Source of the DNA: Microthyrium microscopicum
Taxonomy: Eukaryota
Length of the DNA: 64,000 nucleotides
Direction: 5' to 3'
Assembly: GCA_010405405.1 (NCBI GenBank)
Contig: MU004237.1
Location: 410,191-474,190, forward strand
The position numbers and the translations under genes were made by a program. The notes beneath the pieces are model-generated. The model was given only the letters and a program-made list of their open reading frames with translations. It did no database searches and was not told the DNA's origin. Shown here piece by piece: positions 6,211 through 55,728 of the stretch. How positions within the stretch are numbered: position 1 is the stretch's first letter; each line of letters starts with the position of its first letter.

Positions 6211-6540
6211 TCTCACATTTCTTTTGTAATCATTAGCGTTTGTTTTATATACGGTTGTTGTTTTGATTGGCGGCGTATTTAGGACGGTAATAGCATGGAA
6301 ATATGGCCTGGGAATAATGGCTTTCTGCTAATCGGTTCATGGGAAAACAGGTGTTTGTTTGTATTTTAGATATCTACCGGATGGTAGGGGGACTTGTAAG
6401 ATACCCGGATAAATCTCCACTCGATCGAATTAGACTGGCTTGTAAGGCCGTAAATCGAAAATTATTTATGTTACTTCTCTTCCGAATGATGAACCAAAAT
6501 CCTCCACGTCACAGCATAATGGGTACAGGATAAATGCAGT

Positions 6541-8108: not shown

Positions 8109-8591
8109 ATGAATAACCTTCTGACCACCTTGCAAGACGCCCTCAGGGACTGTCCTCTTCTTCTCTACGCTCCCATGAAGACTAATCCACATCTCTGCAG
8201 GCTCGCCAATGACTACGCTGCCCGGAATGGCATGCATTCTTTCCAATCCATATACAAGGCGCTGATGGATGCGAAAATTGCGTCCCCAATGTTCTTATCC
8301 GAGGCTCTTGCTCAGTGCGCCTCAGGAACTGTATATCTCTATCTTCCTCATTGCGGTCTTGAAAGACCAGGTATCTTCACTAAAAGCGAATGGCCAGAGC
8401 TTATGAGCAACGAGAATGTGGAGAAGATTGTATGGATTCGGACAGATGACAGTCTTTGTGCCACAGGAGGACGGCACTTGACGATCTGGATCAGAGGACA
8501 AGGGGCTACGGAGTTTCCTCTAGGAAAGTCGATGTGGCTAATACAACACGAGTTTGCATGTAAGCGTAAAGAATGTGGGATGCTGTCCTAA
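8109..8591 (+). CDS. Hypothetical protein with ADP-ribosyl cyclase/NADase-like motif pattern
   Basis: 160-aa ORF from ATG 8109 (upstream CTAAT...CAG looks like an intron end); SEALAQCASGTVYLYL...IFTKSEWPELMSNENVEKI. Confidence 0.55.
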   Translation: MNNLLTTLQDALRDCPLLLYAPMKTNPHLCRLANDYAARNGMHSFQSIYKALMDAKIASPMFLSEALAQCASGTVYLYLPHCGLERPGIFTKSEWPELMSNENVEKIVWIRTDDSLCATGGRHLTIWIRGQGATEFPLGKSMWLIQHEFACKRKECGMLS

Positions 8592-9554
8592 GAGGGATGC
8601 GGAAGGGGAGAGCATATGAGCGTCATGCTTAACAAGTTGGAGTCATTTGCGTCGAATCTCTGTTGTTCAAAATGGTGCAATTCGCGTTCCCATAGCTCGA
8701 ATCTTAGATATGTCTAACGGAAAGAACTTTGAAATTACCTCTCCGTAACCTAAAAGATTTTATACGTTGTCTTAGCATCAAACGAAGTCTTCAGCACTTA
8801 CGCTGGGGTTTGAAAGAATGCATTTGGTTTTATGCCGCTGATAATGTAGGTCTTGGTGAGTCGTGACTTTTTCGAAGGTCATCTTGGTTATACACACAGA
8901 GTAGCAAGCGATTCGACTTATAGATATCTCTCGTACCTAAGAATAAAGATTGAATCATGATTCATTGATTTATGTGGACTTTGATTAGTACTCAGTGAGA
9001 AGATGCGATTATTATTGATGTATGAAGCGATATGCTGCTAGCCGAACTCGGTCTATTTGATATTCTGAATCTTACCAACCTTTGGCCACAATGAAATATC
9101 CATCGGATGCAACCAGACAATATAATTCGTCCTACTAAGCGTGGCATCACTAGATGAACAAGGATTTGAAGGCATGTTATTCTTATCTTGCATATCGCGT
9201 GGCGTCAGTGAACCAATGATGCCTTTCAATCTCCAAGCTTCACCCCACTCCTACCACTTCTATCGACCCTTCAACCCAGATCGTTGACAGTGATTAGCGA
9301 ATATGATTCGCATCTGGAGCATTTAGACGACTCTTGTGAGCTGTGAGCCATGCACGAAACAGTTATCTTGGCCTTTGCCAAGTCCGATGCGGCGATTGAG
9401 CATGGTAGATGTGCATGTCATGGCCTAGAACTTCCCCAGACTGCTATGCTTCAAAGTCTGAAAACTCAAATCTTGGCTAACTTCAAGCTTCATCTTTTGC
9501 TCGACTCTTTGATCACCTCAATGCCGCTCTCGACCAGTTGACAACCTATATACC

Positions 9555-21626: not shown

Positions 21627-24174
21627 ATGGCTAGTATCGTGGTTTCAGGCGCAACAAGCAATGAGGACGTCCTTTTGCAACAAGATGTATTACTGGAAAT
21701 TGAATCCGAAGAGCGAAAAGGGTGGATAACAAAGTTTACGAATGAGTGAGTGAAGACAACTTGCTACAATTCTGTTACTTTGTTGGAAACTAAATATAAC
21801 TTAGGGAAGATTTGCAGCGGCCTACCCGCAAGCTTCACGACGCGTTGGAGTCATTTGAAGAGTCCCTAAGCCTGAACGAGCTCCACGACGTTCGCCACAC
21901 AGAACAACAATGCCTCGAGGACTTTGAGAAAGTAATTACCGAAATGGCCGCCCGCGAGGATAAGAAAGGAAAGAGAAAAGAATGGATTCAAAAGCTGTGT
22001 AGAAGGTCAGAGCGATTTTGCTTGATAGCACTGCACTATCAAGAAGTCTTCAATGCTCTGAACAATCAGGCCCCTCAGTATACGTCGGTGATATGGGCAG
22101 CGGTTAGATTCCTTCTGGTATACAATACAAATAATGAGAAACTCAAGGCAAGCGTTGCGGATACTCTGGACAAAATTGGACGAGATCTTGAACAGCTTGA
22201 GGTTATTTCCACGTTACAACCTGTCAGACAGATTGTGACAGGAGTGACTGATACCTACAAGCATCTGATGGGCTTTCTAGCTGAGGCTTTAAGTTACTAC
22301 AAAGAGAGTCGCGTCAGTAAGTCTAATTCTCACAAACTCAGCTGTTCGGTCCTAAACAATGCTTAGCTCGATTTCGAAAGAACTTGACGCAGCCCTGGGA
22401 ACAGAGATTTCAGCATTCAGTTAATACGATAGAACAGGATGTTCAGAGAGTTCGTCATGTTGCTCAGATATGCCTTTTGAGTCTCGCTCAGAAGATGAAA
22501 GAGGGCATTTCTCTGCAGATTCAGGACATGGAACAAAAGATTGACCACAGCTCGGTAGTTTTGCAACAGGTGCTATCAGATACCGGTCTTCTGGTAAAAG
22601 AAGGAATCGAAATCCAAAATATGATGAAGGAAGCACAATCGTTGATCTCGGTACCAGTCAATCAATTTGCAGCCCTTGACATATGGAAACCGGCGATTAA
22701 GAGTATCCTCATTAATGGTATGAATTCGTCTTCTCGCGGGGAACTGTTCTAACAACGATCAGATCAAGTCCGCTACCAGACTCACCTGAGTCATTCTTCC
22801 AAAATATCTAGTATTTGTTTGTTCTCAGATGTACTTGATATAGAAAATGGAAGGCCGAATCAAACTCGGTGGATGATGACTTCTGCCACGGCGTTGCCCA
22901 AACTGGCCTCTCTGGAACAATCATGTAAAGAGCGACTTCTGCGTTATCGACTAAGTGAAAGAAAACTTTCACCACCATTAATGAACATTCAGTGCAATAT
23001 CGTCAAGAAAGGAGAGATGTTCCAATGGTTGCGTTGCAAAAAGTCATCTTTACTTTGGATCCAGGGCCGTCGCTTGTTGGGACCACTAGATTGGACTACT
23101 ATTATCTCATTGGAGGTGTCCGCTCTGGCTCAAGACATTCCCAATACCACTGTACTGGAGTGCTATTGCTACGAGTTCAGCCGCAAGACAGACACTACAG
23201 TGCAAACCATGCTGCAACTTTTTATTGTCCAGCTTGTAGCTCAACACGCCGGGCGGTTTACCAGTAACCTTTCTCATCAGCATACACTCAGCATCTGCAG
23301 GCTTGCGGCAGCAGAAAGTAATATGCTGAGTCTGTGGTCGATGTTTGCGTCATGTCTGGAAATAGCTTCGCCCAAACATCTTTATATGTTTATCGACAAT
23401 ATAGACAACTTGATTTTGCCAGAAAGAGCAGAAGGAGGCCTATCAGATGCCGAAATACTACTCGAGCTTCTGGATGGGCTTGCAAAAACTAGTACTCCCA
23501 TATGCAAGATTCTGGTCACATCGAGGCTTGACAATCAGGAAAGCATAGTCTCCAAGCTGACGACTATTCGACGTCAATTTCACCAAAGTCGATGTTATTT
23601 TCTGCAGGTTCCTCATTTTCCAGAGAAACTTGCCACACAAATCCAACCGCCACGTCGAGTCGTCAGATATGACTCGCAAGTGAAAAGAGTAAACACCGAC
23701 GAATGCGAAGAGATCTGCAAGCGAATGGACAGCGATTTGACCAATCCCGTCGAGGATCTGATAATGAAAACATCAGCTGGCAAACGGGAATCAACAGACG
23801 AAGATGATCTTCTCGATAATTCCGACGATTTTGACGATGCCAGCTCCATTGACTCGCCATCGACATTCATTAACACTCTTTCTGAACCTTCTGACCGGCG
23901 CATAAACCGAAAGATACCCAGATTGGAGGACTCTGGCGATCAAGAAGAGTTTACAGGCTCTGCATACCGCGCAAATGACTCACTAGGGAGAGCCCTGGAC
24001 TTTTGCTCCTCCGATGATGATTTGGACGAAGTTGATGATTCAGGTCCAAGTGATGATGGCCTTAGTTTCATGGGAAATAAAAATCCAGGTTCAGAGAGTC
24101 ATAATATTGATGCCATTGCTTCAGTTAGGCCAATGGAGTTCGAGACTGCTACTTCGAGTGATGACTCAGAATAA
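21627..24174 (+). CDS. NACHT/STAND-like (NLR-related) protein with degenerate Walker A and acidic tail
   Basis: ATG 21627; introns 21746-21804, 22317-22366, 22718-22762 all keep frame; helical N-domain (SVIWAAVRFLL...QPWEQRF); FQWL...SSLLWIQG; YMFIDNID; CKILVTSR. Confidence 0.75.
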
Positions 24175-31068: not shown

Positions 31069-33210
31069 CTATAGCTTCTCTCCTTGTCCCACCTCGATCC
31101 CCTCATATTTCTCATTACCTACTTGCTGATGGGCGTCCGAGTGCCCAAAATTATCCTCCTTGATGACCGTGCCATCTTCAGCTATAATCTCCCGGTAGCT
31201 AATCTCCTCCCAACCCAAGCCCATCTCTTTGATCAATTTCTGATTCTTCGTTGGCCAAATCTTGCAAAGAACATAATAGACGACAAACGATGTGGTGAAA
31301 CTCAAAAGCCATCCAAGTTGCCCGAGTTCCTGAGCAGGCTTGCTGACATGAGGACCCAATGTCCCGACGAAGCCGGGGAATGGTAACGCAATGCCGACGA
31401 TATAGCTGATAGTAGCTTGAATGTTCCAACCATAGTGATAATAGTAGTGTTTGTTGTATTTGCTCCCATCGTACAGATGGGATAGGAATATGTTGCCTTT
31501 TGTGAGTAGGAAATAATCGCAGATCATGACGGCTACGACGGATGCCATGAACAAACCGTATCCAGCGAGGAAGGTTGTAAATGTTGTTGCGGATGCAAGA
31601 ATCTTCCATGGGCAGATTGCGTAACTTAGGCATAGTACTAGGAATTGGCCGCGCGGGATTGTTAGCAAGCGTGGTAAGAGCATGCTGGCATCTGAACCGA
31701 AGGGAATCATGTTGGCTGCAATGTTCGTTCCTAGAATGCTGATGGTCCACGCTGAAGCTGCTAAGAATACGGCAAATCTAGTGGTTCCGCCTGAGATTGT
31801 TAGTGTATATTCACAATGTGTGGATGTGGATGAGCTTACTCCAGTATCTGTCCATGATAGCTTCAAACAGGTCCCATTGATTCCAAAGTTGCAGACCCCA
31901 TGCGTTGTTGATTGCAGCTGTGGACAAAATCCCCAGCGTCGCTGCTAGAGTCACAGATATTGGATTCGAGAATAGCTGGGACCACATGGCTCCAGTTTTC
32001 GTTTTGCTCCAGCGGGCATAATCGGGCTACTTGTTGTTAGTGTCGAAGAAAAACGAAAAGAAGAGAGTACAGACCTGATTGGTGATCAATGTAGCAGTGT
32101 TTCCCATACCAGCATTGATCGAATACACGAAGAACCAACCCTAGTCAAATTTATCAGAAGACTTGCTTGATACCTCTTGGTTGATGCTATGTCTTACCCA
32201 GCCGCCAGTTGCAGCGCTCGTTTGACTCAAATGACCAGCTCCTATGTGGCCTTTGGTGTTTACCATGCAGAAGATAAAGAGACCGAAAACAGCAGGTATC
32301 ATGGTCTAGCAATGATGTTAACGATGACAACCTCGCAAAACACAGAATTTCATGACTTTGGAAAACTCACAAAGATCTTCAAGTTGAATAGCCATTTCAG
32401 CTGGTATGGCCGCAAAAATGTAAACGGTAGATGAATACACCAGAACAAGAAGAATGCCAGCATGCCGGCGCTAGTGATTCCCTGAGACTTGGGGATATGG
32501 TTGGGAATATCAGTATAGTTGTGGCCAAATATTGCTCGTAGCACGTTTGCCAGTAAAGAAGCTGCGGATAGATTAGTGACAGCGGTTTCACGACATGAAC
32601 TATTGCTTACCTCCGCTAAATAGTTGCACTGAAAACCAAATGATGGCTAGAAGAGCTCTTACTCCAACAAAGTAGAAAGCTCCCCACATTCCAAAGACAC
32701 TGCGGCCGATGATGGGATATCCTACGTGATATACACTAGCCGATCTTGAATTGAAGAACATCTGGACAATATAAGTTAGCTTCAGCGTTGGATTAGAAGC
32801 GGAGTCTAGACTGACAGCAATTGAACTGATCAGTTGACTCAGAAAAATGGTGATGATACTCTGCCACCAGTTCAGGCCAATTCCAATCATTGTGGATCCC
32901 AAAGTCCAGTTTCCGAATCCAATCGTCCAGTAGAAAATAAAATCTGTAGTGGTGAGTTCTCGTATCAGTTGATTACAACACACTTTTTGTTCTTACAGTT
33001 CCACCATCTCCACGTTCTTTTTGACTCTGGAGTAGGATCCAAGTCTACATTTGACCAGGTGATGCTACTAGTACCGTTGCCATGTTGGTCAAGTGCAGTA
33101 TCCGGTACAGTGATCCATTGCTTAAAGCCGTCCCAGCTACTGAATGCTCCTTTCGCATTGTATCGTATCTCTTTAGCCCGAGCCGTCAATTTGCGAGGGG
33201 ATAATCCCAT
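31069..33210 (-). CDS. NCS1-family nucleobase/allantoin permease (Fur4/Dal4-like), multi-intron
   Basis: WSNVDLDPTP...RTWRWW, WTLGSTMIGIGLNWWQ, GYPIIGRSVFG, GTNIAANMIPFGSD, AICPWKIL. Confidence 0.93.
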
Positions 33211-33739
33211 CTTCAAAAATCGGAATCAGCTTTTGAGGATAGCCAAGACAGAATCAAAAGGTGAAGATAGAAGTGTCGTCTGGGGTAGCATTATAGGACA
33301 TCATGAGTGGAGGCGATTGATCGACACTCGCATATACCCCTCTCAGGAAAGGTTACATCGTCCTTATGCTAGGGCATGGGTTAGGTCGGGTTAGGTATAG
33401 GTTTCTCTAAATATTTTCATAACCCGCGTAGGTTAGGTTTTAGAAATATTACGACTTAACCTAAATAGGTTAGGTTTCTATAGGTCTAGCCTATAGGTTA
33501 TATTTATTAATAGATAACCTAAATAAAGGACTAATACTACGTAATTTAGATTAATCTAAAAAGTTTAGTATAGTATTTAATAATTATATCTTATTACTAA
33601 TTTTTTAATAAGTTATAAAAGTATTAATTAGGATTTAGAATTAGTTTATTAATTCTATTATTTATAAATAATTATATAACTATAATTTCCTTTTTATTCT
33701 CTAAAGTTTACTAGTTCTAATTACCTCTCTATAATAAAG

Positions 33740-34810
33740 TTACTAGTTAATTTTAAATACTTATCTAATAGTCTATAACCTAGCTAATATATAGAGCTTT
33801 TACTAAGTTTATATTCTTTTACTAGATTATTACTCTCTTTATATAAATTACATAAAGATTAGTATTTATAAAAATTAATAACTTATAATCTAAAAAATAG
33901 AGGTATAACTTACTTTTAAAGTATATAATAAGATAAACTTTTACTAATTCTTATAAATATTAAATTATACTACTTTACTAACGCGTATCTAAATTTATTA
34001 AACTACTACTATTACTAAAAGTTCTTTAGAATATAATATAAATCTTATAAACTAATCTTATAAATAGTATTTTAGGAATTAAAAGATTATAAGCTTTCTA
34101 AATTTAGTAGATTTTATATAAAGCCTTTACTAGTATTATAATTAATATTTATAAAAAAAATAGAGTATATAAAACTTACTACTAGGTTTAGTACGTTAAG
34201 ATATATAATAATAAGTATTCTACTAGTTATAATAGTTTCTATAAGTTAAAGCTCTTTTATAATAGTTTCTATAAGCTATAGCTAAGTTTTATTAGTACTA
34301 AAAAGTTAGTTATTAATATAAAGTAGTTTATTAAGGTTATTATTAATATATAAAAGTTTATAAAGGTTATAGCTAGGTTAGAGTAGTTTATAGAGGTAAT
34401 ATAAAAAGGTTTAAAGGCTATAAAAGTTACTACTAAGTTAAAGTAGTTTATAAAAGATTTATAAGAAGGTTTAAAAGCTATAAAAGTTATTACTAAGCTA
34501 GAGTAGTTTATAGAAGTTATATAAAGAGGTTTAAAGTATTATAAAGTTCATTAAGATCTAAAGAAGTATAGAGAGAAGAAAATTAAGGTTATTTAAGTAT
34601 ATTATAGTAGTAATAAAGCTCTTTAAAGTAATAAAGGTCTAGATAGTAAAAATAAAAGGAACTTAAAGATCTTAAAAAAGTAGAAAGAGTTAGAGAAGAA
34701 GGAATAGATAAATCTTTTAAAGATATAAAAGATAAGCTTATTACTTATTAAAAATTATTTCTTAATATTCCTTTATAAGAAAAAAATATTTAGAGTATTA
34801 AACTAGTATA
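33740..34810 (-). pseudogene. Transposon-borne histone H3-like (CenH3-like) gene, RIP-mutated; ends approximate
   Basis: Introns 34130-34179 and 33866-33913; de-RIP reading RTKPGT|KALREIRQIQK..LLIPKxPFxRLVREI..DTRWQSSAIQCLQESAEAYLVxYFE|DTNLCAIHAKRVTIQQKDM. Confidence 0.85.
34321..34560. repeat. Degenerate 60-bp tandem repeat (x4) in the H3-like N-tail region
   Basis: RAGTAGTTTAT recurs at 34321, 34381, 34441 and 34501 with similar downstream sequence. Confidence 0.8.
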
Positions 34811-35034
34811 ATTTAAAACTTTAAAAGCTTAACTAATTAAAAAGAGTAAAGTAATAAAGAAGAGTAAGTAATAGTAAGACTAACCTAAAATAATAAGAAT
34901 ATTATAATCTAGCGCTAGAATTAATATATTCTAGAGAGTATTACTTAAGAGACTATATATATATACTACTTTATATTACTTATATACTTTAACTTCTTCT
35001 ATATACTCTCTTTTAATTAGTAATAATAATCCTT

Positions 35035-36400
35035 ATACTTTCCCTATTAGTCTTAATTTTAGTTTCTTAGCCTAATTAATACTTATTTAACTCTTTAAAA
35101 TTTTATTCTCTTAGTATAGATACTAAGAAGCTTATAAATTAATTATCTTAAAATTCTTATATAATTAAGAATTATACTTATTATATTAATTTTAATAGCT
35201 ACGCTATAGAATATAATTACCTTAAGAAGAATAATAATACTTATATTAATTATAAAAATAATAAAGAGTATAAGACTATAGAATACTAAGAAGCTTCTAA
35301 AGACTAACATATTACTATTCTTTTTACTTATATAAGACTCTCTAAATAAAAGTAGTATATACTTTTTTACTATTAGATTTTCTTTATTAATTTTTCTTAG
35401 TATTAATACTAATAAATCTATAGAATTACTTAGCTAGAAACCTAAGTATACTATTTATTAAACTAAACTATATCCTATTACTATTACTTTATTAGCTTAT
35501 TATTAAGAATTAATAAAAATAAAGTATAAGAAGTCTAAGTAGCATAATATATATATTAATACTAATAAAGATATTACTTATAATTATAATATTACTACTA
35601 GCTATATTATTTCTAAGGAAGCTTCTTAAATTGCTTTTAATTTAAAATTTTATTAACTCTTTTATAAGTATAATTATAAAGAGCGTAATTTATAAATTTT
35701 ATTCTTCTCTTAGATTAACCTTACCTATAGATAATAAGAAACTATTTATAACGTTTTCCTTATTAATTATACTATTAGAGATTTAGCTAATAAAGAAACT
35801 AACCTTATTAAGGACTATTACTATTTTTAAATTCTTATTTCTATAAAAACTCTTAATATAAGTTTTTTATACTTAGTATATATAAATTTAATTAACACTA
35901 TATAAGAAACATTTTCTAGACTTTACTAAATTACGTGCTATAAAGAATTAGAAAAAGAATTAAAAGTTAGTAAACTTTAACTATAGATATTAGTTATTAA
36001 CTTATACTTAGAAGAAACTTCTAAAATTATTTTATAAAATAATTATAAAATATAATAAAGCTAATATTAAAATTAATACTAATAAATTTCTAGACTTATT
36101 ATAAATATAGTAGTTATTTTCCTAGTACTAGTCTTATTTTTATTAAAATAAAGTAAAAAGTAATTATAAATTTAATAACTTAGTACCTTAACTTCTAAGA
36201 AAAAATACTATTTAATAAAGCAATTTAAAAGATAAAGGATTAAAAAGTTTAGAAGATTAATAGTTTATTTGCCTTAAAGCTTTAAAAGAAGGCTTAAAAG
36301 TTAGTATAAAAGATACTAGTAAAGTTTAAGAAGTTAGTAATAAAGATTTATTTATATCTAGCTTTAAGTATAAGATTCTTTCTAGTTCTTTTAGTAAATA
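35035..36400 (+). pseudogene. Second RIP-mutated cargo ORF, possibly with a Zn-cluster-like Cys motif; ends approximate
   Basis: Frame from 35035 has TAT codons (possible RIP'd TGT) spaced Cx2Cx9Cx9Cx2Cx5C at 35173-35271; the stops seen are TAA/TAG, explainable as RIP of CAA/CAG/TGG/CGA. Confidence 0.3.
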
Positions 36401-39399
36401 TAAGTTAGTTTATTATAATTAATATTTAATTTAGATAGAATAAGAATACTTATTAATTAGTATTAACTCTAATTAGAGTTCTAGGAAATAATATTTTTTT
36501 AATAAAATATAATTAAATATTAATTAGAAAACAAAATTATAAATATAGTACTATTTAAAGTATTAGAATACTAAAATAGAATTATTTATTTTAACTTATA
36601 TAAATCTAATTTACTATTTTTAACTTTATAATCCTAATATAATAAGTAATTAGGCTCTAATATAAATAGTTACATTTTCTAATTATTTATTATTAGCTTT
36701 AATTAAAGACGCTAGTTCTATTTTAAAAGCTAAGACCTTTAATTTATAAGCTATATTATAGATTTATACTACTCTTATTAGCTATAAGTTTCTAACTTAT
36801 TACTATAAGTTTCTTTTATATAGTTAAATTAATAAGATAGAAATATAATAATTTCTTTTATAATTTCTTAAGCTACCTTTCTACTTTATAAACTCTTCTC
36901 TTATATCTTAAATATTTATTTACTAAAAGATTACTCTAAGAACGTATTAGTATAAATAGCTTAGTTTAAATCTAAGCTCCTAGTTATTTAAAAAAAAGAA
37001 TATATATAAATAGTATTAGTAGTAAGTAATAATTAAGCCTAAAAAGAATTATTTTATAAATATAATAAAACCTTTATTATAACTTAAATATAGTATTAAT
37101 AATAGGCTAGTATTAGTAGAGTTAACTTAGTAGCTTAAAAAACTTCTAATATAATATAAATAAATATTTCTTTAGAATATAGAATATTAGTAGTTTATTA
37201 ATTATATATTTTTTTCTTTATTACTAATATTATTATTTATAAAGAATATTAGTAAAAAAAATAACTTAAATAATAATATTTATTTAATAATACTAAAAAT
37301 ATATAAAGAATAAAAATAAAAAAAAAGAGAAGAATAAAAAAGAGCGTAATAGATAAAAAGGAATATAAGATTATAAGTAGGTTAAAAAAAAATAATAAAA
37401 AAGAGTATAGTATATAAAAAGAAGTATAAAGTTATAAATAAATTAAAAGAGAATAATAAAAAAGAGTATAGTATATAAAAAGAAGTATAAGATTATAAGT
37501 AGGTTAGAAAAGAAAGATAAGATTATAAATAGATAAAAAGAAAGTAATAAAAATAAACATAGAGATTATAAAGAATTTAAGGTTAAGAAAGAAATTCTAA
37601 GAAGTAAGTAAATAAAGTTAAAAAGAATATAGTTATATTAAAATAATAAAGTAAGCTAGAGTAATATAATAAAAGTTAATAAAGTATAGATTATATAGTA
37701 ACTAATTAAAAGGAGTAAATAACTTAATAAGGTAAGCTATAAAATAATTTATAGCTTATAATAAATAAGAATATTTAGAATATTAGCCTTTAACTTAGTA
37801 GAACTTAGTTTAAACTAATAAGAGAAAGATACTATAATAAATAAATATTTTAAAAGGTAGAAGCTATAATAAACTTCCTAAATTCTAATTAATATTTTTA
37901 TAACTCCTTAAAACTTAGCTTTAATAATAGCTTAATATTAGTATAAAGTTTAGTATGCCTTAATTATAAGATACTAATTTTAATAAGTTTTATTACTTTT
38001 AACTCCTTATAATAAATTATCTATATATTATTACTAAATATAGTTATACTCTAAAACTATAATTCTAAACTCTTTAAGTCTATACAACTTTTTAACTTTT
38101 ATAAGTTTATTTAAGTTATAATACTAACTCTACTTTTTACTTTAGATTTTACTTATTATTATTTTTCTATCTTCTTTTCCTTACTAAATTTTTAGTAGTA
38201 TTTATATTTATTTTATTACTCTCCTAAGTAGTAAATTTTAGAAATAAATTATAATAAAAGTTATTTTACTATACTAAGTAAACTCTTATTACTATAATTA
38301 TATACTTTTATATAATAAACTTTAAAGAATTTATTATAAATATTTTTAATTAGCATAAATAGTATAAACTTAAATTACTATAATAATAATAATACTACTT
38401 ATACCTCCTACTATTAATATCTATACTTATTTACTCTTTAAGACTATAGTTCTAAAATTTTCTATATAAAAGCGCTATATAATCTATAAGTAGCTAATTA
38501 TTATTTTTTAGTAGATACTTTAGTAGTAATACTTCTTAAATAGCTACTAATAATAGTTATAATTTTTTCTAGTAGTATAATCTTTATAACTAAAGATAAT
38601 TAAGATAAGAAGTACCTTAGTTACTTATCCCTAGCCTTATAATTATTTTTAGACTAAAATATTCTCTACTATTTAATTATTATTTAGATATAAAGATATA
38701 AGTAAATTAATTTAGATAATATTTTTTATTACTATAATAAGGAAAATATAATAAAGGTTAATTAGTATATTATCTTTTTAAATTAAGTATAGAAATTAAT
38801 AGGCTATTAGGATATTCTTACTTTAAGGTTTAAATATTATATTAAGTAGTATAATAAAGTTAATTATAAAAATAATTTTTAGATTTAGTATATCTTATAT
38901 AGCATATTATAACTACCTAGGTAGAACTAGTATTACTTTTTAGTAAATATACTAGTTAAGAAAGATAAGATAGCTAACTACTAGTAATAATTAGACTAAG
39001 TATAGATTATATAAAGAAATAACTTTATAGATCTCTAGTTTATAAAATTACTTTTAAAAAAAAGAGACTAGGCTAAGTAATTCTAAGGAGGGCTAAAAAA
39101 TATAATAAATTAAGAAAGAGTTTAATAGTATAATAATATAAAAAGTTAAGAGGAAAAATACGTTACGTTAATTACTTCCTAAATTACTAGATTAGTTAAA
39201 TTAGTATAATTAAGAAATAGATAATTAGAATATAGAGTATAATTAATTAATATTAAAAGAGAAGGAAAAATAAATAAAAGTTTCTATAAATAGTATTATA
39301 AGATAATATAAATAGTACTAGATTTTTAATTAATACTTTTTTAACTTACTAATTTTATTCTTTTAGAACCCTAGGTTTTTTTAATAAAATTAATACTAC

Positions 39400-42300
39400 T
39401 CTAAATTATATCTTCCTTTACTTCTACTTTTAATTCCTTTATATTTAGAGCTAGCTTAATAACTTTCTTCTTATTATTATAATCTACTATCTAAGATAGG
39501 AATATTATTACTAATAGTACTATCCTAAACTCTCCTATTAGTATATTGCCTTTTAGCCTATTAATATCTACCTCTTTTATTTCTAGTATAATACTTAGAA
39601 TATTAGAGGAATCTAGTAATTAAGAAAAGAAGGTATATTTATAGAATAAGAATACTAATAATTATTTCTAGACTTAGTAATAAATTATATCCTAATTTAC
39701 TACTAACTAAGAAAAGCTAATTTCTATATAAATAGATCCTTATTAGTATAGTAGAAAAAAAAGCCCTATTTAGAATAGTATATAAGTAGGCGCCTTTAAG
39801 TCTACTAACTAGCCTTATTATTACTATATTTATTATTATAAGTTCCTTAAATACTATTACTTTTATAAAGATAATACTAATACTTTCTTTATTAAGTAAG
39901 GATTACTTAATAAGTATATTACTTTCTAAGATTATAATAATATTACTATAGCTAAAGGTAATAAAGATTAAATTATACTTAATTAAATAAGATTAACTAT
40001 AACTCTAATATATTTAATTCTTACTATACTATACTATTACTAATTATAATATTTATAGATATATAATATAAAGCTTAAAGCTACTTATAGTTTTAATAGG
40101 TATAAGATTATACTATAAAATTTTTTTACTTTATAAGTACGTTTAATTATAGCTAAGAGTCTTCCTCTTAGTATATTTAAATTATAATTTATATAATAAG
40201 TTATTAACTACTATATACTATTAAGTATTTAACCTTAATTTACTTTATAAAAAACTATTACTTTAGAAATTATAAAATAAGTTATAATTAATCTTATAAA
40301 GTTAAAAAAGGAGTTTATTTAGCTAGGTAATAATATATATATTAGCATTTAGCTAAATAGATAGTCTTTAAATTTTACTTATAAAAAGTACTTAGCTATT
40401 ATTAGATAATAGATTACTCTATAGTAAGAATAAAAGAAAAAGCTTCTTAGCTTTCTTTCTACTATTAAAAAGTTTATAAGTAAAGCTTATGCTAAACTTA
40501 TAAGTAATATATTTAATTAATATAGTATTACTAAGAAAGTTTACTTTATTATAATTAATAATACTAGTAATAATAAGATAATAATACTTATATTAAATAT
40601 ATATTAATACTTTAAGCGTACTATAAGTATTATTTAAATTCCTTATATATTCTATATTATTTAACTAATATAAAGTACTTTACTTTCTTATCTTAGCTAT
40701 AAATCTATAAATAAAGAAATTAAATAAGTATTTATTAAAGAAGATATTTTAAAAGAGAGAAAACTTGCTATAAAATATAGCTTAGTTACTCTTACTTTAT
40801 ATAAAGTAAGTTAGTTCTTATTTTTAGTAAGTTAAAAAAGTATTAATTAGAATAGCTAATATAGTCTAGGCCTATAGTATTACTAAGTATATTAGCTCCT
40901 CTAAACTATATCTCCTTAGGTTCCTTATTTACTTAGCTAGTTTTTATTTTAACAAATTCTAAATATCTAATCTATACCTTATTAATAAATACTAGAATAA
41001 CCTTAATCTTTATAGTAACTTTTAGCTAATCTAAGATATTAAAATATACTAAGACTTAATAATAATAATAAAACTTTACCTTTAAATTATTAAGATACTC
41101 TTTATATACTTCCTTATTACTAAAGCTTATAAAGCTAAAAAAAAGAAGAATTAATAATAAGTAAGAATTCTTATACTATCTAATATAGAATAGGCTAATA
41201 TTAAGTATCTAGTTTAGCTTACTACTCTATTTAATACTATAACCTAGATTCTTAATAGATCTAAGGCTCTATCTATTTATAAAGTCTTCTTATACTTCTA
41301 AAAGCTCTTCTAATATATTAATAATAAAGAGGCTATTTTAGATAAATATATACTAATAAATACTTAACTATATTAGTAGAGTAAACTTTAGTTTAGTCTA
41401 AAAGAGGCTTAAAGGAAACTATAAGTATACTTTAACCTAATATAAACTAATATCTAACTATAACGTATTTATACTTTTAATTAGTTATTATTTCCTTATA
41501 TAGCTAAGTCTACCTTTACTAACCCTTAATAGAAGGACTACTTTAATTTAAATAATTTATCTTAGTATAATATAATAATTAAAAACCTTTATAAAGTTTA
41601 GCTTAAGAAGTATAGTAATTTAAATACTTAATCTAATAATATAGAACTAATTATAGATAATAATAATATTATAGTAAATAATAGCCTAACTAGCTTATCT
41701 TTATCTAATAAGTTTATATAATACTTTAAAAGTAGTATATCTTTATTATTATATTATTTATAATTTACTAATATAATAATAGTATCTATAAAGAATAATA
41801 ATCCTCTCCTTATATAGAAAGAAAATAATAATCTAGACCTCTACTTAATAATAACTTATATAGTATATAATTATCTTTATATACTAGCTATTAAAGTTAA
41901 AGTAGAACGTATCTTTTCTATTACCTATAACTAATCTAAATATAATTATTCCTACTCCTCTTAGATATTTTACGACCTTATATTATTATAAGATATACTT
42001 TACTAATATAATAATAATAAGTTTACTAAATTAATAGCTAATATTTTAGACTATTAAAATAGTTCTAATAAGATTAAAGTAGAGATTAATATATATAAAA
42101 AATATATTAATATAATTATAAAATAACTTATAAATACTCTACTTAATTATATTTATTTTAGTAATCTTAATACTATATACTATTAGATATTTAATTATAT
42201 AACTTATTATAAAGATTTAGATAAGTTACCTATTATTTTTAATAAAGAAAACAATTTAAATAATTTAGATAAAGATAATAATATTTTAGATAAAGATATA

Positions 42301-42700
42301 AATAAGGCTAGTAAAGATAGTTTTAATAATAAAAATAATACTAGTTTTAGGTTTACTAAAAGGAAAGAAAACCTTAAGAATACTAATACTAGTAAATCTA
42401 TAAGCTTAGAGACCTCTTCTAGATTCTATAATATAGATTTAGATAATAGTAAGAATAGTAATAAGGTAAAAGATAGTAATACTTAAGACTCTTTTTATAG
42501 ATAATTACTAAAAGATATTAATAAGCTTCTATTTATAATAGCTATTAGTAGAAGAGTTTATAAATTAATATTTAAGTCTACTTTCTAGTAGGAATTAGAG
42601 AATAAGTAAAAGTAACTACTAATAAGTATAGTCTTTAATAAGGCTAGTAAGAAAAAGAAGGTTTAAACTAGTTATTAGGATTTTAGTAGTAGTAGCTAAT
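39400..42700 (+). pseudogene. hAT transposase, RIP-mutated; ends approximate
   Basis: De-RIP motifs in order: KSPIW (BED finger, ~39760), ISIQLDGWS (~40341), YLAII..W..LLGF, TTDNASNN (~40551), IPCxxHxIQL (~40638), QDVKTRWDS (~41032), DYLxxPAxxVEVERIFS (VERIFS readable without correction at ~41902). Confidence 0.9.
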
Positions 42701-44488
42701 TAATATATAGTTTAATCTATATACTATACTAAATATTCTAATTAATATTTTTCTAACTCTCTAATTTATATACTAGATTATTTCTACCTACTTAGCTTTT
42801 ACTAACTATATTAAGTATAGTAACTCTTCCTTTATAACCTAAATAGGTTATATACTAAATAAACTTTACCTAATAGGTCCTTAATTTAGGTCCTTTAGGT
42901 TCCTTAGGTCTAATCTATAATAATTTTATTTTACTTAGGTTAAGTATAGGTTTTATAAAATATTTTTAAAACCTAACCTAACGCTAAGAACCTATATATA
43001 TTAGGTCGACCCTAATAGGTTACCTAACCCATGCCCTAGCATAATCGTCCTTATCGAGCCTATAGGATCCAGCCAATTAAGTCAGGACGTATTCCTTACA
43101 AAAGGTTCAGGAACTAGAAAAGCAAGGCCTCAAATACGACCTGTAGATAAGTCACTTCCTCGTTAACTATATCTTCAAATTGGGACAGTTTACATTTTTC
43201 CCCACGGAACTAAGAGGTATCGTGCATTCAGAGTGAGTTCAACAGATGATTGGATGTCAGAAAAGTCTAGCAACCAACATGAGAAGATAGAAACAGGAGA
43301 ACCTTGGAAGTTGATTTTTGCAAGTAGGTCATTTCATATAAAATCAAGAGTTAAGTGGACTATTTGTAGTAAGCTACGCTGCTACTTTAGGTATGGACTA
43401 GGATTCATACCTATTAGTTGCTTACTTCTTCGTTGTAGACTGAGGGATTCTTACTTCAAGTCTCATCTTGAAAAAAGACTTCCATACATAAAAGTCTACC
43501 TATGAGAAACCAGCCTTTTCTTCCTTTCAAAATTTCTAGCGCTGACAATCTTTGCACAGCAGAACGATTATCCTTTCGCAATGAAGTATTCACTCCTCCT
43601 GTGAAAGGTACAGTACAACATCTTCTTATTGCTTGTGTGCTGGCAATTGCAGTGCGGTCAAGCTGTACCTCTGGTCAAAGGTTTGCTGTATCAAGGTTTG
43701 TTGTACACGCCAAGTCCTTCACAGATATCGATTTACTGCTACATCCGAACAGGATAATCTGATCAAGTGGAGTGTCGTTTGCATTGCAGTTGTTGCGTAC
43801 AAGTTGGACTTGTTTTTATTTGCTATTTCCAAGCACAAAAGTCGTCTGCAAATGTCGTACCCGTCAAAGTTTACAGGTCAATTTATTCAATTTGATCACC
43901 TCCAAGTAGTGGATTTCCAGACAATGAGGCTGCAAAGCCGAGTCTATTCCTGGAATTTCTAAAGTAGCATGAAAGCCACGCTTTCAGCCTCAATGATTGG
44001 TCCAACCTCCATATTCCCACACCGCCAAAGCGGCCCTTCTTTTCCTCACCAGACCAATACACTTCAGGCGCTAACACGTAGCGACCTGCAGAATTCTACA
44101 TCTAGTATCACTTTGCACAAGAATGTCTTGTCACCAAGAATGCACGCGCAGGCTGGACCTTGCATCAGTCCACCCAAACGCTTCTGTGTATGCCGCGTTT
44201 GCTCGACGCGAGGTCGGTCGCGACAACTGTCCAGTAGCATGAGGTATAAACGCAGGATGCTGCAGCTAAAGTTGGACAGCTCATTATAAGCTGATCAGCT
44301 TGACCTCCAGCTGCCAATTTTGCAACTTCAGCTCTGGATTGAAGACGGCCTCAACTGAATGCCTTGGCTTCAATGAGATATCTTTTAGGATCATCGCCAT
44401 CTTTCCGAGTCAACATTCGTCAACTCAATCCACAACACTTCTGCTTGCCTCAGAAACCTGGAGAACACGACATAAAAATCGACTCGAT

Positions 44489-46117
44489 ATGACCAAACTC
44501 GAGGATGACATCAAGGCTGCTCTCGGCCACGATGAAGATCTTTATGCTTTCCCAAACTATCCTCTTTACTCTTTGGAATACGTAAAGAGATATAATCTGG
44601 ATATTGATACAACGCCCGCGGCAGTAACATTCCCTAAGACCACCGCCCACGTTGCAGCCATCGTCAAAGCTGCAGCCGCAAATGGCACCAAAGTACAAGG
44701 CAAGAGTGGTGGCCACTCTTACGCCAATTTTAGCTCCCCGGACAAAGGTGTTGTGGTGGACTTAAAACATTTTCAAGGGTACACAATCGATACAACGACG
44801 TGGCAAGCGACCGTCGGCGCTGGTGTCAAACTGGGCAATCTCACAAAGTTCATGTTCGATTCACATAAGCGAGCAATGGCGCATGGTGTGTGCCCAGATG
44901 TCGGTATAGGAGGACATGCAACTATTGGCGGACTGGGACCAAGTTCGCGACTATGGGGAGCGGCTCTGGATCATATACTGGAAGTAGAAGTTGTTTTGGC
45001 TGATGGGAGCATCATTAGAGCTTCGGAGAAGCAGAACTCTGACATCTTCTGGGCTCTCAAAGGTGCAGGAGGCAGCTTTGGTATCATTACAGAGTTTGTC
45101 GTTCGTACTGAAGAGGCTCCAGATGCGCTGGTTCAGTATTCATTCAGTTTCACAACAGGATCTTGGTCGAGTATTGCTCCTGTCTTCAAGGCCTGGCAGA
45201 AGTTTGTCTCCGATAAGTCACTTACCCGGAAATTTGCCAGCACCGCCAACGTCACTGCTGCCGGTCTGATCATTACTGGAACTTATTTTGGAACTCAAGC
45301 AGAGTATGACGCGGTCATGAAAGGCTTTACCTTTCCAGGAAATGCCTCCAGTCACACTGTTCATGTCAAAGACTGGTTAGGCGCTGTCTCTAACTGGTGG
45401 GAACAATTCTTCCTTCTCATCGGTGGTGGTATTCCTGCACGGTCATATGCGAAGACGCTTACATTCAACGGTGCCGATTTGATTCCAGATTCAGTAGTCG
45501 ATAAGATGTTCCAGTACATGGAAAATACCGAGAAAGGCACTTTGTTGTGGTTTGCAATCTTTGATGTAAGTTCGGCGCCTTTTCTTCATAGAACTTCTAA
45601 GAATCTTCTGATTGCTTAAGCATGTGGGCGAATCGAGTCGGCCATGATCACTTTATACTGACAATTCTAGCTCGCTGGCGGTGCAGTCAACGACGTAGCC
45701 CTAGATGCCACTGCTTACGCGCATCGCGACGCTCTATTCTATCTCCAGAGCTATGCAATTGAACTCAATCCACTAGAAGCGGTCTCTCCTAAAATCAAAG
45801 GCTTCTTAACAGGATTGAACAAGGTTATCGAAGACGGCATGAAAGTAGCCGGGTTTAATGAAGACCTCGGATCCTACCCAGGCTATGTTGATCTCGAATT
45901 GAAGACGCCACAGAAAGATTACTGGAGATATAATTTACCTCGATTGGAAGAAATCAAGACCAAGTACGATCCGAAAGATATTTTCCACAATCCGCAAAGC
46001 GTCCAACCTGCCGGGCAGCCATCTACACAGGTCCATCCCGTGGAAAAACCACAGACACCGGTCGAGAAAAAGAAGAAGATGACACTCATCGAGAAACTTA
46101 AGAAGCTTCTCTGTTAA
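44489..46117 (+). CDS. Berberine-bridge-type FAD oxidase (glucooligosaccharide oxidase/AA7-like)
   Basis: KSGGHSY, AHGVCPDVGIGGHATIGG (His+Cys bicovalent FAD pattern), FWALKGAGGSFGIITEF; intron 45566-45670; YPGYVD..YW..NLPRLEEIKTKYDPKDIF. Confidence 0.92.
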
Positions 46118-50840: not shown

Positions 50841-52877
50841 CTAATATCTCCTCCATGCTCGATCTCGCCGTCCATGTGAATGGCCACTAGCTGGCTCTTT
50901 TGCTGCATGCGAATGGCCCGCAGCTGGCTCCGGAGTTGGAGCAGCGTGTGAATGGCCACCCGATGGCTGTGGAGCTGGAGCACCATGCGAATGACCACCA
51001 GATGGTTCTGGGGCGGGAGCACCATGCGAATGGCCACCAGCCGGCTCGGGTGAATTTGAAGGCCTTGGTAGAAGGTTGTTCCAACTCGACATGCCAAAGT
51101 AACGCGGATTCAACCAGCTGCCATCACCAGCTCGAAGCCACATGAACTCTGGGCCTGGATATTCATCAATGCCCGGTGCTGTGGCATCCACAACGTTGAT
51201 GTTGTCTCCCTTAGGTGCAACTTCTAGCGCTGCCGCTTTGGCGTCAACTTTTGTGACTGTAGCAGCACTTCGGCAGACGCGGTCCCCGCTGACATTCCAG
51301 TCTTCTGCGTTGATACCTGGGGTAACCCAGAATAGGTGTTCGGGATCGTACTTCTTCTTGATTGATGACAAACGATCGTAGTTGCTTCCCCAGAAGACAG
51401 TCCTCCAGCCTGGGGTAAATCGAGATGCTTCATTGAGATATGCGCCCATTTCCGGGGCAAGTGTTCGCATAGCAGATGCGACCGGATCCTTTGAGCCCAG
51501 ATGAATAATATGAGTGTAAGCTTTGCGCCATGCAGGAACCACAGAGGTATCGTTTCCGCGTTTGTGGATACCTGGTCCACCTATACCTTGACCACGTAAT
51601 TGAGGGTTGGCCATATCCTTTGGCATTGAATCTTCAAGGACTTGAGCAAATTTGGGAGAGTTCAGATGCTCTTTACCAAGAAGCCAAGAGTCACCACCTC
51701 GAATACCAGTTGATTGTGTGGCCATCATTTCCATTCCAGGCCCATGTCTCTTTTTCAGACCAGAAAGTACCCATGGAGGATATCTGTTGACGATCAACTT
51801 TTCGAACCAGGTATAGAAATCCGGATCTGAGCCGGATGAGTACTGCATGGTTTTGTTATCCATTCCTGGGAAACCTCCTAGACGTTCAACAACTGGCCTC
51901 CATTTCTCGTCAACCCACTTCTTCGTGCCTTCTTCTCCCGAGCTAACGGTTACGACAGTCATGGCATTAGGATAGATGTCGTAGTACATCCCCATACCCT
52001 GATCCGCAAACTCTGGGAACTTGGTGTGAAGCCAAGCAGCGGCTTTGTATACCGACTTTGTGTCCTTAAAGTCCGTTGTGTTGATGAGAAGCATTGACGA
52101 GGCCATGCGAGGAGAAGGGAAAGCCTTTACTGTGGCCTCCACGACAACGCCCCAGGACCCTCCGCCACCTCCTCGAAGTGCCCAAAATAGATCCGGCTCA
52201 GAGACTGCATTGGCCACGCGTAGCTTGCCATCGGCTGTAATAACCTTGAACTCCACGAATTGATCAGCGCCTAGGCCATATCTTGGACTCAGAGGCGAAT
52301 GTCCACCAGTTTGTCCCCAGCCGCCAGCTACGCTCACACCCTCGTGGGCAGCACCCAGCGTCATCAACTTGCTTGATCGTAGATGTTCGTTGAGCTCTCC
52401 CGTATTGTATCCAACTCCGAAGGTCAACCATGACTCTGCTGGCGCGGAACTAAGAGGAACCACTTTTGTGCTGGTGTTGACTGCTGGAACACCTTCTGCG
52501 GTAGGCTTGAAATCAGTCAAGATCTTCATTCCTTTCAGGGCAGTCGTCACAATAACCAGTCCGTTAGGGGCATCGTTCCTGCCTAGAAAATCATGCCCGG
52601 AATTGAGAATGCTAAGTCGAATATTGTGCTTTTTGACAAACTCCAAGGCGGCTTTAACTTCATCAACTGTCTTGACGTCGATACGGTAAGTGGCGTGCTT
52701 CATAGAACCCTTTTCGGCCTGCTTTTGCGCTGTTGGGAGCTTTTCCTTCCATTCTTCTGGTGTCGGCCATTTTGAATCTCCGGGAATTACTTTACAGTCT
52801 GGGCTTGCTGCTATTGTGTGACTGCAAAGTTGCGCGAGGATGGTAACAACCGCAACCAAATTGTTGAAAGACTTCAT
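50841..52877 (-). CDS. Secreted BBE-type FAD-linked oxidoreductase with C-terminal GHSH repeats
   Basis: Signal peptide MKSFNNLVAVVTILAQLCSHTIAA; CKVIPGDSKWP, NSGHDFLGR, GGHSPLS..YGLGADQ, LFWALRGGGG, AYLNEA..FWGSNYDRL..IKKKYDP. Confidence 0.92.
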   Translation of the reverse strand: MKSFNNLVAVVTILAQLCSHTIAASPDCKVIPGDSKWPTPEEWKEKLPTAQKQAEKGSMKHATYRIDVKTVDEVKAALEFVKKHNIRLSILNSGHDFLGRNDAPNGLVIVTTALKGMKILTDFKPTAEGVPAVNTSTKVVPLSSAPAESWLTFGVGYNTGELNEHLRSSKLMTLGAAHEGVSVAGGWGQTGGHSPLSPRYGLGADQFVEFKVITADGKLRVANAVSEPDLFWALRGGGGGSWGVVVEATVKAFPSPRMASSMLLINTTDFKDTKSVYKAAAWLHTKFPEFADQGMGMYYDIYPNAMTVVTVSSGEEGTKKWVDEKWRPVVERLGGFPGMDNKTMQYSSGSDPDFYTWFEKLIVNRYPPWVLSGLKKRHGPGMEMMATQSTGIRGGDSWLLGKEHLNSPKFAQVLEDSMPKDMANPQLRGQGIGGPGIHKRGNDTSVVPAWRKAYTHIIHLGSKDPVASAMRTLAPEMGAYLNEASRFTPGWRTVFWGSNYDRLSSIKKKYDPEHLFWVTPGINAEDWNVSGDRVCRSAATVTKVDAKAAALEVAPKGDNINVVDATAPGIDEYPGPEFMWLRAGDGSWLNPRYFGMSSWNNLLPRPSNSPEPAGGHSHGAPAPEPSGGHSHGAPAPQPSGGHSHAAPTPEPAAGHSHAAKEPASGHSHGRRDRAWRRY

Positions 52878-55728
52878 ATTGGACGGATGTTGGCGAGTCA
52901 ATAGCACGCATTGAAGGAAGTGGTCACATAATCCCTCTTAAAGCACAACCCAAAAGGCCTTTTCCCCAGAAACATGCTCAAACTGAACTACCCTAGTCTA
53001 TTCTAGAGCTTCTATCGATTATTGTGTACGCACGGCCAAGATTTAAAAGGCGGAGTAGAATATTACCGGTATCTTAATGATTTGGCTCTGCCGTTCGTGT
53101 GCCAGTCTATGGGTCTGATATCAGCTATAAGGAGCATTTATTGGATGGGTTTGAAGGGGACTAGAATGGCAATTTTCATATATTGCCCCTTAGCAAGCTC
53201 ATGTAATTCTGAATTTATATGAGGATCTCATGAGAGTTTGCTATGTAGTATCCAAAACAGAGGTGCTAGATAGAGGTTGCTATAACATCGTAGTTTTGAA
53301 TCACAAAGTCCTCCAATCAGGGCAAAGCTCTATTTGATATTTAAGAAAAGGGACCCTAGTGCTCGCGTGCTACGATCCCCATCTGGGGGACAGGGCTGTA
53401 TATGAAGGGAAAAACGATTGGATATCGATTTAAGTGCCTACCTTATTTGAACACCGCCTAGATTTTCTAAGCAAGTAACTGTCTTTCTTGTCATGGCATC
53501 CTGTAGAGTAACCTTTATAGCGGAAACTCCGACGAACACTTCAACTTTGCTTTCGGTAAGATTCAACAGCTCATTCGCCAGATAAGACTGTCTATGATGC
53601 CCTTCATTCCATTTTGATCCCGGGGCATGCTTTCTTTATGCTACTGTACTATTGTTCAACGCATGACTTTTTCGAAATATATTATGCAGCTTTTGCTAAG
53701 TCGTCTAGGAGCGTTGAAGCTTTTGTCTCATTCTCCAATTCTCAATTCGACATGAAGGAACGTCAACTTGTCCGGCATGTGCAAGATAACCTGCTCACCG
53801 TAATTAACCATTCCCAGCATGAATATCTTTATGGATACAGCTTATCAAAGTTCTTTAGAGCCAAGGCAAGTTCACTCCACCGTTCTATAAGAGGTTTCAC
53901 TGCCTGCACTATCAATGTGTTGTGTAAATTGAACTATATCAATAGTTTTATATGGAGGCGTAAGGATGATGGGACCCTTACCTAGGACCACCACGATGCG
54001 AAGGTTGTACTTTTATTTGACCATCTAGATCTATATCTAGGCTCAATTCAATGTTTGGTTGCAGCTTGCCCGAAAATTTTCCCGAATAACGACTAGTCAA
54101 TAGAAATAATCTCAGCCGATGCATATTACAGCTGCCAATTCAGCAGATCTGGCTGGCTTTTCTCTCTCACACTATCATCTTGAAGAGGTTGATTGCAAGT
54201 ACTGGACACAATACTAGTCTAAGAGAGTGCACTACTTGTCAAATTGGACAGACTGGTTTCATTGTACGAAAGAAGCATAGATGAAGGAATCACGAAAGCC
54301 TCCGATAGACGCTGGTATCCTGGAGTCGATCATAAATTCTCCGCAAAGTGTGGCTGTAAGCCTGTAACTTATCTTGTTGAGCGTTCGTTTCTTGTCGCGA
54401 AGCACCTTTTGCAGAGTATGCTTTGGCAAAGACAGAATATTAAACCAGTGAGGTTCACTACCAATCAGCACTGCTGATACAAGCCTTGTCAAAGGACGAA
54501 CACTGAAACTAAAACAAGCCTGCGCTACTATACTTGTCATTCAAAAAATAGTAGCCGTGATTGAAGAGTTTAAAAGAGCAAAGACATCCAGGAGGCCTGT
54601 GGTTGAACATTGTGAGGAGCTCCATGCGATACATCCACGCCTGAACTATTCCCCTCATTTTGATTTTCTTCATCTATGTTTGTATAGAACTTCTGTGGTG
54701 TCGATCAATTGTTGCCCCGGATGAATTCCACAGGGAATATCATAACTGCACGAAGGCGGCATTGGATCTAGCTCCAAGTTAAATCCCTCAACCTCGCAAG
54801 AACATAATCGTAGCGCAATCATTGATAAAATATAGCGAAAGCCCTCATTTCTCTCGGATCGTAGCCGTGATTGGACTCTGGTTTAATTTCAACCCATTTG
54901 ATCGTACTGGTTGGGAAAACTGCCTTGCGCATAACCCAGTTTCCCAGAGCAAGAATGCAGAGTAAATTTTGAAAAGCATGAGGATTTAGGTTTACTGTGG
55001 CGAAAATTAGGGCCCATCAGAACTGTACTCGCCAATGATGAACTGCTTTCGGAAGTTCCGCGAGCATAGAACTTGTAGACAACCAGGTTGACAACCTACA
55101 AGGTAGTTCTTGAACTGTAGAAGGGCAAATTAAATACCCCGTAGTTCTAGTTGAGGGTGCTTGAGATGCGACTGGTAGCTAAAGTGTAGCTTCTGATATG
55201 ACCATGGCGACTAGCTTTTATAGGATACTCGACTGTAGGCATTAGGATTGGTAGAAACTATTAGAACATCCTACGGATCTGCGGTAAACTTACTAAACAT
55301 TTCGCCACAATACGATGTCGTATTACAGATAATAAAAGATTGCGACAACTAACATCAAAGCTGTAAATCAGCTTGGAATTCATAGCATTCGTGCATAGTG
55401 CCTAAGACTGTAGATATAGTTGCCATCGACGAAGTGGAATCAAAGTTTTTCAGGAATCTCTGAGAAGTACCACCTCTGTCCATTTTACCAATATTGGTGA
55501 TCATATCGGAGAAGTAGGCAACGGGATAGTCATGCTGTTAATCACCATTTCTTCTATATCAAGTGCTTCGTTTTGAGAGCTTCATTTTATGCCCTTTGCG
55601 ATTTGAAAGGTAACCTAAAGAGATGAAAGTTGGCATTCGTTATTGATAGACCTCATGGTCCCTAGCTTCCGCCATGGACCTGAAGTATAGTTCTTCGTAG
55701 TCTGGATTGATCGCCACTAATAATCTTA

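Follow-up and report, generated by a model that had tools for sequence, protein, structure and literature searches.

Transposons of the hAT superfamily that carry a sequence resembling histone H3 have been described in fungi. In Pseudocercospora fijiensis, according to Dhillon 2019 (PMC6710886), such elements measure 9.5–9.9 kb, have 20-bp inverted ends and 8-bp duplications, contain one or two H3-like sequences each, are confined to AT-rich blocks and have all been disabled through repeat-induced point mutation (RIP). Similar elements are reported there for P. musae, P. eumusae, Cercospora zeae-maydis, Sphaerulina musiva and S. populicola, and the extra H3-like copies of six species are all said to have premature stops (PMC6710886). 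With this arrangement, hAT/histone-H3 "transduplication", which has been published for Mycosphaerellaceae and for Pyrenophora, we compare an element found in a stretch of 64,000 nucleotides of Microthyrium microscopicum (assembly GCA_010405405.1, contig MU004237.1, positions 410,191 to 474,190 of the forward strand), referred to below as the window; all coordinates are those of the window. We conclude, with a probability of roughly 85%, that the feature under study is a pseudogene, namely an H3-like passenger gene (H3L) in a structurally complete, coding-dead hAT-type transposon of about 9.7 kb, of the kind described in Dhillon 2019.

An intact hAT-borne "H3L" is known from Pyrenophora tritici-repentis, where Manning 2013 (PMC3538342) found that it matches neither H3 nor the centromeric-type H3 (CenH3), listed expressed sequence tags (ESTs) for it, and already asked whether a transposon H3L alters chromatin. 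An earlier note on the window, made from the sequence alone, had cited only these Pyrenophora genes. The closer precedent for our locus is, however, Dhillon 2019, which states that the Mycosphaerellaceae and Pyrenophora element families show no similarity to each other (PMC6710886). A search of the later full-text literature listed nothing closer to the window element.

A complete, RIP-saturated element with hAT-type ends

The transposon occupies positions 33365..43043 (9,679 bp, GC content 0.18). Its left terminal inverted repeat of 22 bp (33365..33386, plus strand) is the perfect reverse complement of the right one (43022..43043, minus strand), and directly outside the two ends stands an identical 8-mer, ATCGTCCT, as the left (33357..33364) and right (43044..43051) copies of the target-site duplication. 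The 22-bp ends have only these two matches across the window at up to 3 mismatches, and none was found in 100 shuffles.

Contigs from public sequencing runs of the same organism, labelled X1, X3 and X5, were aligned to the window. At the left end, contigs match up to position 33365 and then pass into unlike sequence (9 in X1, 7 in X3), and at the right end they diverge exactly behind position 43043 (6 in X1, 7 in X3). The summed contig depth, which is not equivalent to copy number, was 580–1854 inside the element versus 86–109 in the flanks in X1, and 2088–12452 versus 601–777 in X3. Relative to its other copies, the element differs in X1 by 1,168 transitions and 12 transversions, and in X3 by 1,211 and 12, respectively. 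Among the joints listed, no contig links position 33364 to 43052 as an empty insertion site would.

RIP is a premeiotic defence of fungi in which the cytosines of repeated DNA are changed to T, chiefly at CpA. The window has a single AT-rich block, with a GC content of 0.15–0.19 compared with 0.40–0.55 elsewhere. The TpA/ApT ratio is 1.58 in the element and 0.69–0.70 in the flanks, the (CpA+TpG)/(ApC+GpT) ratio is 0.04 versus 1.32–1.33, and 30 CpA and TpG dinucleotides remain in the 9.7 kb of the element, compared with about 1,430–1,450 in each 10-kb flank. Overall, the element is multi-copy in the source genome, RIP-saturated and complete at both ends.

A run with another organism label (X6) also contained element sequence. 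Its record 22 is a 159-nt contig consisting of the first 44 nt of the element (33365–33408) and other sequence, and a separate contig stops at position 33365. This places the element family there as well, at other sites.

An 8-bp target-site duplication combined with short inverted ends fits the hAT superfamily, whose inverted repeats are about 10–25 bp long with the end consensus YARNG. Pfam returned no family for the six frames of the element (stops written as X, E ≤ 1), that is, no remnant of a transposase, of DUF659 or of a hAT dimerisation domain, so the assignment to hAT is based on the ends and on the likeness to the published family. Because of RIP saturation, this miss is itself uninformative; in Dhillon 2019 the only transposase domain reported is DUF659, in less mutated copies (PMC6710886).

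The likeness to the published Mycosphaerellaceae elements concerns the size (9,679 bp against 9.5–9.9 kb), the 8-bp duplication, inverted ends of about 20 bp, the position in an AT-rich block with CpA-to-TpA RIP, and an H3-like pseudogene with premature stops (PMC6710886). The consensus sequences in supplementary file 2 of that paper, which we compared by eye here and below, add that H3L lies close to one end and points towards it, that the same two intron-like interruptions occur, and that subterminal GGTTAGG-like repeats are present. In Pyrenophora, as in the window, the H3-like passenger sits between the inverted ends of a hAT element and can be assigned to neither H3 nor CenH3. The Pyrenophora elements, however, are 5.6 and 2.3 kb long, nearly identical and unmutated, with intact open reading frames (ORFs) and ESTs, whereas the window copy has been destroyed by RIP (PMC3538342). 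Plant Pack-MULE and Pack-TYPE elements are likewise DNA transposons that carry and amplify a host gene or gene fragment between their ends, but they belong to another superfamily, and the window element carries a whole gene with introns in copies destroyed by RIP.

Several observations weigh against reading the window element as a hAT transposon of the Mycosphaerellaceae kind. Besides the missing transposase remnant, the outermost five nucleotides, TATGC, do not fit YARNG, and a fitting TAGGG begins 5 nt further inward. None of ten words of 10–14 nt from the window ends and subterminal regions, complements included, occurs in the six Mycosphaerellaceae consensus sequences, and supplementary file 2 of PMC6710886 likewise contains none of five words of 14–15 nt from the H3-like gene, although words spanning a line break would be missed in both searches. 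Only one H3 fold was found in the element, by the RIP-aware scan described below, compared with one or two in the published elements. The window copy further differs by an extra insertion of 11 codons in loop 1, which has normal length in the published consensus copies with the same intron positions, and by a GC content of 0.17–0.18 against the 0.38–0.40 reported for the P. fijiensis H3-like copies (PMC6710886). We regard the window element as a further member of the kind described in Dhillon 2019, with different ends and the additional loop-1 insertion; the arrangement as such has already been described.

A histone H3 fold beneath the mutations

The H3-like gene lies on the minus strand. The recognisable end of exon 1 (34195–34180) reads R-T-K-P-G, the counterpart of R-Y-K-P-G in H3, and is followed by intron 1 (34179–34130; 50 nt, GTAAGT...TAG), which interrupts in phase 1 the codon after Pro-Gly. 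Exon 2 (34129–33914; ALREIR ... AYL..FE) contains 7 in-frame TAA or TAG triplets in 71 codons. Intron 2 (33913–33866; 48 nt) starts with GTAAGT, has TAA as acceptor and lies in phase 1 after the FE codons; left unspliced, it keeps the reading frame and adds 16 codons. The third exon (33865 to about 33780; the DTNLCAIHAKRVTI... region) has 3 in-frame stops in 28 codons, the last one included, which gives 10 stops in 99 codons for the gene as a whole.

Upstream of 34195 no likeness to an H3 tail was detected (best scores 11–15 half-bits against a null of 12.9 ± 2.3), and the frame of exon 1 contains 30 TAA or TAG triplets in 145 codons there, with neither an open frame nor a start. The N-tail of roughly 200 aa that the earlier note had claimed was thus not confirmed. 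Further upstream of the fold lies a 60-bp tandem repeat of 4 to 5 units (34299..34570).

The codon string with two short GTAAGT introns on which the earlier note was built is present as quoted, and a hand check of the ancestor sets showed every reversion it lists to be a legal T>C or A>G change. Its principal claim, an H3-fold gene masked by RIP inside a DNA transposon, is borne out, the transposon having the 8-bp duplication of hAT type and 22-bp inverted repeats.

In sequence of such low complexity the resemblance to H3 could be a chance product of AT-richness. Reference genes for scoring came from metagenome contigs, which were scanned with a degenerate pattern for one H3 motif and yielded 120 loci; these included L006, L108, L009, L022, L057, L038 and L083 as canonical H3 of fungal type, L104, L061 and L032 as fungal CenH3, and L043 as a CenH3-like gene. 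Scoring by the best ancestor of each codon had been uninformative (background of about 225–240 everywhere), and a RIP-aware log-odds codon model was used instead, with C>T and G>A each set to 0.75 and the background taken from the element.

With this model, positions 34121–33798 scored 63.3 half-bits against the fungal H3 L006, while 60 codon shuffles of the frame gave a mean of 30.9, a standard deviation of 4.0 and a maximum of 45.7. The score is 8 standard deviations above the shuffle mean, and a Gumbel fit gives p ~ 2e-5 per frame. When only C>T and G>A are reversed, 62 of the 81 aligned codons are compatible with fungal H3 (35 of them identical as read), compared with 15.1 ± 3.4 for random element codons and a maximum of 27 in 2000 draws.

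A comparison with the PDB by phmmer points the same way. The 118-residue read-through, with X at stops, matched histone H3 at E = 0.0025 and 157 sequences at E ≤ 10, and all 60 of the matches listed were H3 or Cse4; exon 2 alone reached E = 0.36, with H3 or Cse4 in 11 of 13 matches. Counting against the H3 identity, Pfam found no family at E ≤ 10 in the raw translations, either of the six whole frames or of the three gene pieces, and other low-complexity stretches of the element reach 38–47 half-bits in the RIP-aware scan. A search for homologous proteins with the same 118 residues returned three candidates, none of which was scored. The match at 63.3 half-bits is nevertheless collinear and in the right order over 81 codons, and the structure is homologous to that of the published elements. 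The chance reading has already been rejected on these grounds, with a probability close to nil, and we take the H3 fold as confirmed.

Two other places were considered for a second H3 fold and discarded. Positions 42232–42336 (plus strand) scored 47.0 half-bits, about the shuffle maximum of 45.7, in an N/K/D-rich sequence that seems to be of low complexity, and positions 36543–36487 (minus strand) scored 38.3 half-bits, near the shuffle maximum and apparently also of low complexity.

The earlier note had further called the gene CenH3-like, which would mean that the passenger derives from, or evolved into, the centromeric type. Fungal CenH3 (the CENP-A/Cse4 family) does share with the window the H3 histone fold and a loop 1 longer than that of H3. 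An in-frame insertion of 11 codons relative to H3 (33996..34028, minus strand) appears as a gap in the RIP-aware alignment; the earlier note had put it at about 12 residues. The same loop is 8 codons longer than that of the fungal CenH3 L104, which itself exceeds H3 by only 3. The long loop 1 is real and specific to this lineage. Loop-1 insertions also occur in two H3 variants among the metagenome loci, L097 and L036, whose sequence is otherwise canonical.

Two window codons are compatible with CenH3-type residues. The codon at the Phe/Trp site is TAG, whose RIP ancestors are Gln, Arg or Trp (TGG) and never Phe, and the codon at the Gln site of PFQRL is ATA, which fits the Ala of fungal CenH3. 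The probable Trp of the earlier note therefore stands insofar as TAG is not derivable from Phe by RIP; it does not stand as a preference for Trp, since TAG leads back equally well to Gln or Arg. The lack of a detectable H3 tail upstream and a marginally higher RIP-aware score against L104 (64.6, versus 63.3 against L006) also lean towards CenH3.

The comparisons that RIP leaves intact do not decide for CenH3. Since RIP alters only transitions, a purine/pyrimidine coding is immune to it, and in this coding the distance at codon positions 1 and 2 is 0.185 to H3 (30/162) and 0.19 to CenH3 (32/168). At the 25 transversion sites that separate L006 from L104, the window carries the H3 state 12 times and the CenH3 state 13 times, a tie, and the corresponding comparison with the CenH3-like L043 favours H3 by 14 sites to 8. 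Residues compatible with H3 only number 9, against 6 compatible with CenH3 only when L104 is used and 4 when L043 is used, and the identity as read is 35/81 to H3 and 27/84 to CenH3. By any measure used, the window copy is no closer to CenH3 than to H3.

The published relatives, compared by eye in the supplementary file, point away from a centromeric type as well. Those with the same intron positions have a loop of normal length and, in the tail, motifs like GKAPRK and GVKKP, and carry RFQ, PFQ or PFY; the Phe/Trp site is TTC or TTT (Phe) in C. zeae-maydis and in P. fijiensis copy 2, and the PFQRL site is Gln in P. fijiensis and Tyr or His in C. zeae-maydis. The one full fungal CenH3 gene among the metagenome loci, L104, lacks an intron at the Pro-Gly site, while in L022 and L057, both canonical H3 genes, an intron lies 3 nt from it, and the Pyrenophora H3L was placed in neither group (PMC3538342). 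Unlike CenH3, the window copy is a multi-copy sequence in a transposon, and its relatives keep canonical H3 tail motifs.

With transversion sites tied and canonical tail motifs kept in the relatives, the CenH3 reading is not supported, and we consider it quite improbable. Like the Pyrenophora H3L, the window copy is best regarded as "neither" H3 nor CenH3, from a family probably of canonical-H3 origin.

Introns, probable history and possible function of the passenger

Both intron positions recur in the published consensus of C. zeae-maydis and of P. fijiensis copy 2 and, less cleanly, of P. musae copy B (PMC6710886, supplementary file 2). There, too, the introns lie in phase 1 in the codon after Pro-Gly and in phase 1 after Phe-Glu, begin with GTAAGT or a GTATGT-like sequence, and have a CTAAC- or CTAAT-like branch site ahead of the closing AG; over its first 12 nt, the window's intron 1 is identical to that of the C. 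zeae-maydis consensus. In L022 and L057, among the metagenome genes, an intron lies 3 nt upstream of the intron 1 position; the search pattern was blind to genes with an intron at the second, Phe-Glu position. The two short introns are real features of the window gene.

In canonical-type fungal H3 genes (L009, L022, L038, L057, L083), intron positions vary and include codon 8, codon 44, the surroundings of REIA and a site after TIQS.

According to Dhillon 2019, the H3-like copies are intronless retrocopies, the second of which has an insertion of 16 residues (PMC6710886). Given that an intron of 48 nt read in frame equals 16 codons, the insertion reported for P. fijiensis copy 2 is probably intron 2. 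Read by eye in the same file, copy 1 of P. fijiensis and copy A of P. musae do lack introns, and since other copies have them, the retrocopy reading may apply to a single type of copy. A pair of introns conserved in position conflicts with the published view of a captured spliced transcript.

As to the history of the element, an ancestral hAT transposon would have captured a histone H3 gene within its terminal repeats by transduplication. It would then have multiplied through cut-and-paste transposition, and RIP would subsequently have mutated all copies. Ten stops in 99 codons and a near-total conversion of CpA and TpG mean that the window copy encodes nothing, and it most likely acts only as an AT-rich, presumably heterochromatic block of DNA.

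The intron structure could nonetheless be read as the trace of a function, H3L being, or having been until recently, a working histone variant that is encoded by the transposon and benefits it. The two-intron structure is conserved in position between the window and three published consensus sequences, and the less mutated of these still show donor and branch-like signals; hAT elements took up H3L in two fungal orders (PMC6710886, PMC3538342), and ESTs are recorded for the Pyrenophora gene (PMC3538342). However, the window copy is dead, all extra copies in the six species have premature stops (PMC6710886), and the structure could have lasted over the time in question without selection. No RNA run among the runs listed covers the H3-like stretch; X5, guessed to be an RNA run, takes in the adjacent host gene and, of the element, no more than scraps. 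We consider a working variant very improbable. The proposal of the earlier note, a nucleosome part encoded by the element and helping it to evade silencing, finds no support in a copy with 10 in-frame stops and RIP saturation.

A wider version of this idea takes H3L not as a retrocopied passenger but as a long-lived, intron-bearing histone-variant gene that once served the element and kept its two-intron structure across several fungal lineages. The 16-residue insertion of P. fijiensis would then be an unspliced intron 2, and the window copy a diverged, dead member with an enlarged loop 1. We regard this account, taken as a whole, as unlikely, and keep to the passenger pseudogene in a dead hAT-type element.

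Internal repeats, neighbouring genes and significance

A motif of 30–45 nt occurs six times in the element, in both orientations, and two inverted pairs of it bracket segments of 1.5 and 1.9 kb. The first segment contains the H3-like gene, which is bracketed by a 35-nt copy at 33598..33632 (plus strand) and its inverted partner at 35071..35105 (minus strand), the two being 83% complementary; further copies lie at 37882–37918, 39324–39352, 40817–40868 and 42720–42764. The motif could be a transposase-binding repeat, a mark of nested miniature elements or a gene-flanking signal. A likeness at the DNA level between 33598–35105 and either 35900–37918 or 40817–42764 was not found, the raw scores being within those of shuffles, and an alphabet collapsed for C>T and G>A was uninformative in this comparison.

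A second tandem repeat, with a period of 61 bp, occupies 37268–37575, and the short motifs after it come in the order also seen at the 60-bp repeat that lies upstream of the H3-like gene. The surroundings of this 61-bp repeat yielded no H3 fold. In the metagenome contigs, no hAT domain was found beside odd H3 genes in the 46 of 148 neighbouring ORFs scanned.

The product of the neighbouring host gene (31069–33209, minus strand) carries a purine/cytosine permease domain (Transp_cyt_pur). In X5, the run guessed to be RNA, a contig of 1,747 nt aligns to this gene with no mismatch, leaving out six introns of 48–65 nt, and the transposon end lies 156 bp beyond the end of this spliced transcript contig. 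The other flanking genes (2491–6210, 10631–12301, 22753–24174, 44270–45619 and 50841–52937) are ordinary genes of filamentous fungi, with products that comprise a PPR-repeat protein, a two-pore ion channel, an NPHP3_N/NACHT-type protein and two FAD-binding oxidases, one of them with a BBE domain.

For the annotation of this genome, the finding explains the AT-rich block of 9.7 kb and gives the exact ends of the element. It also provides another instance of a transposon spreading a housekeeping gene that RIP then erases. If intact relatives exist under selection, a histone encoded by a transposon would bear on how mobile elements deal with heterochromatin; nothing in the present data shows this, and the window itself adds one more dead copy to the family.

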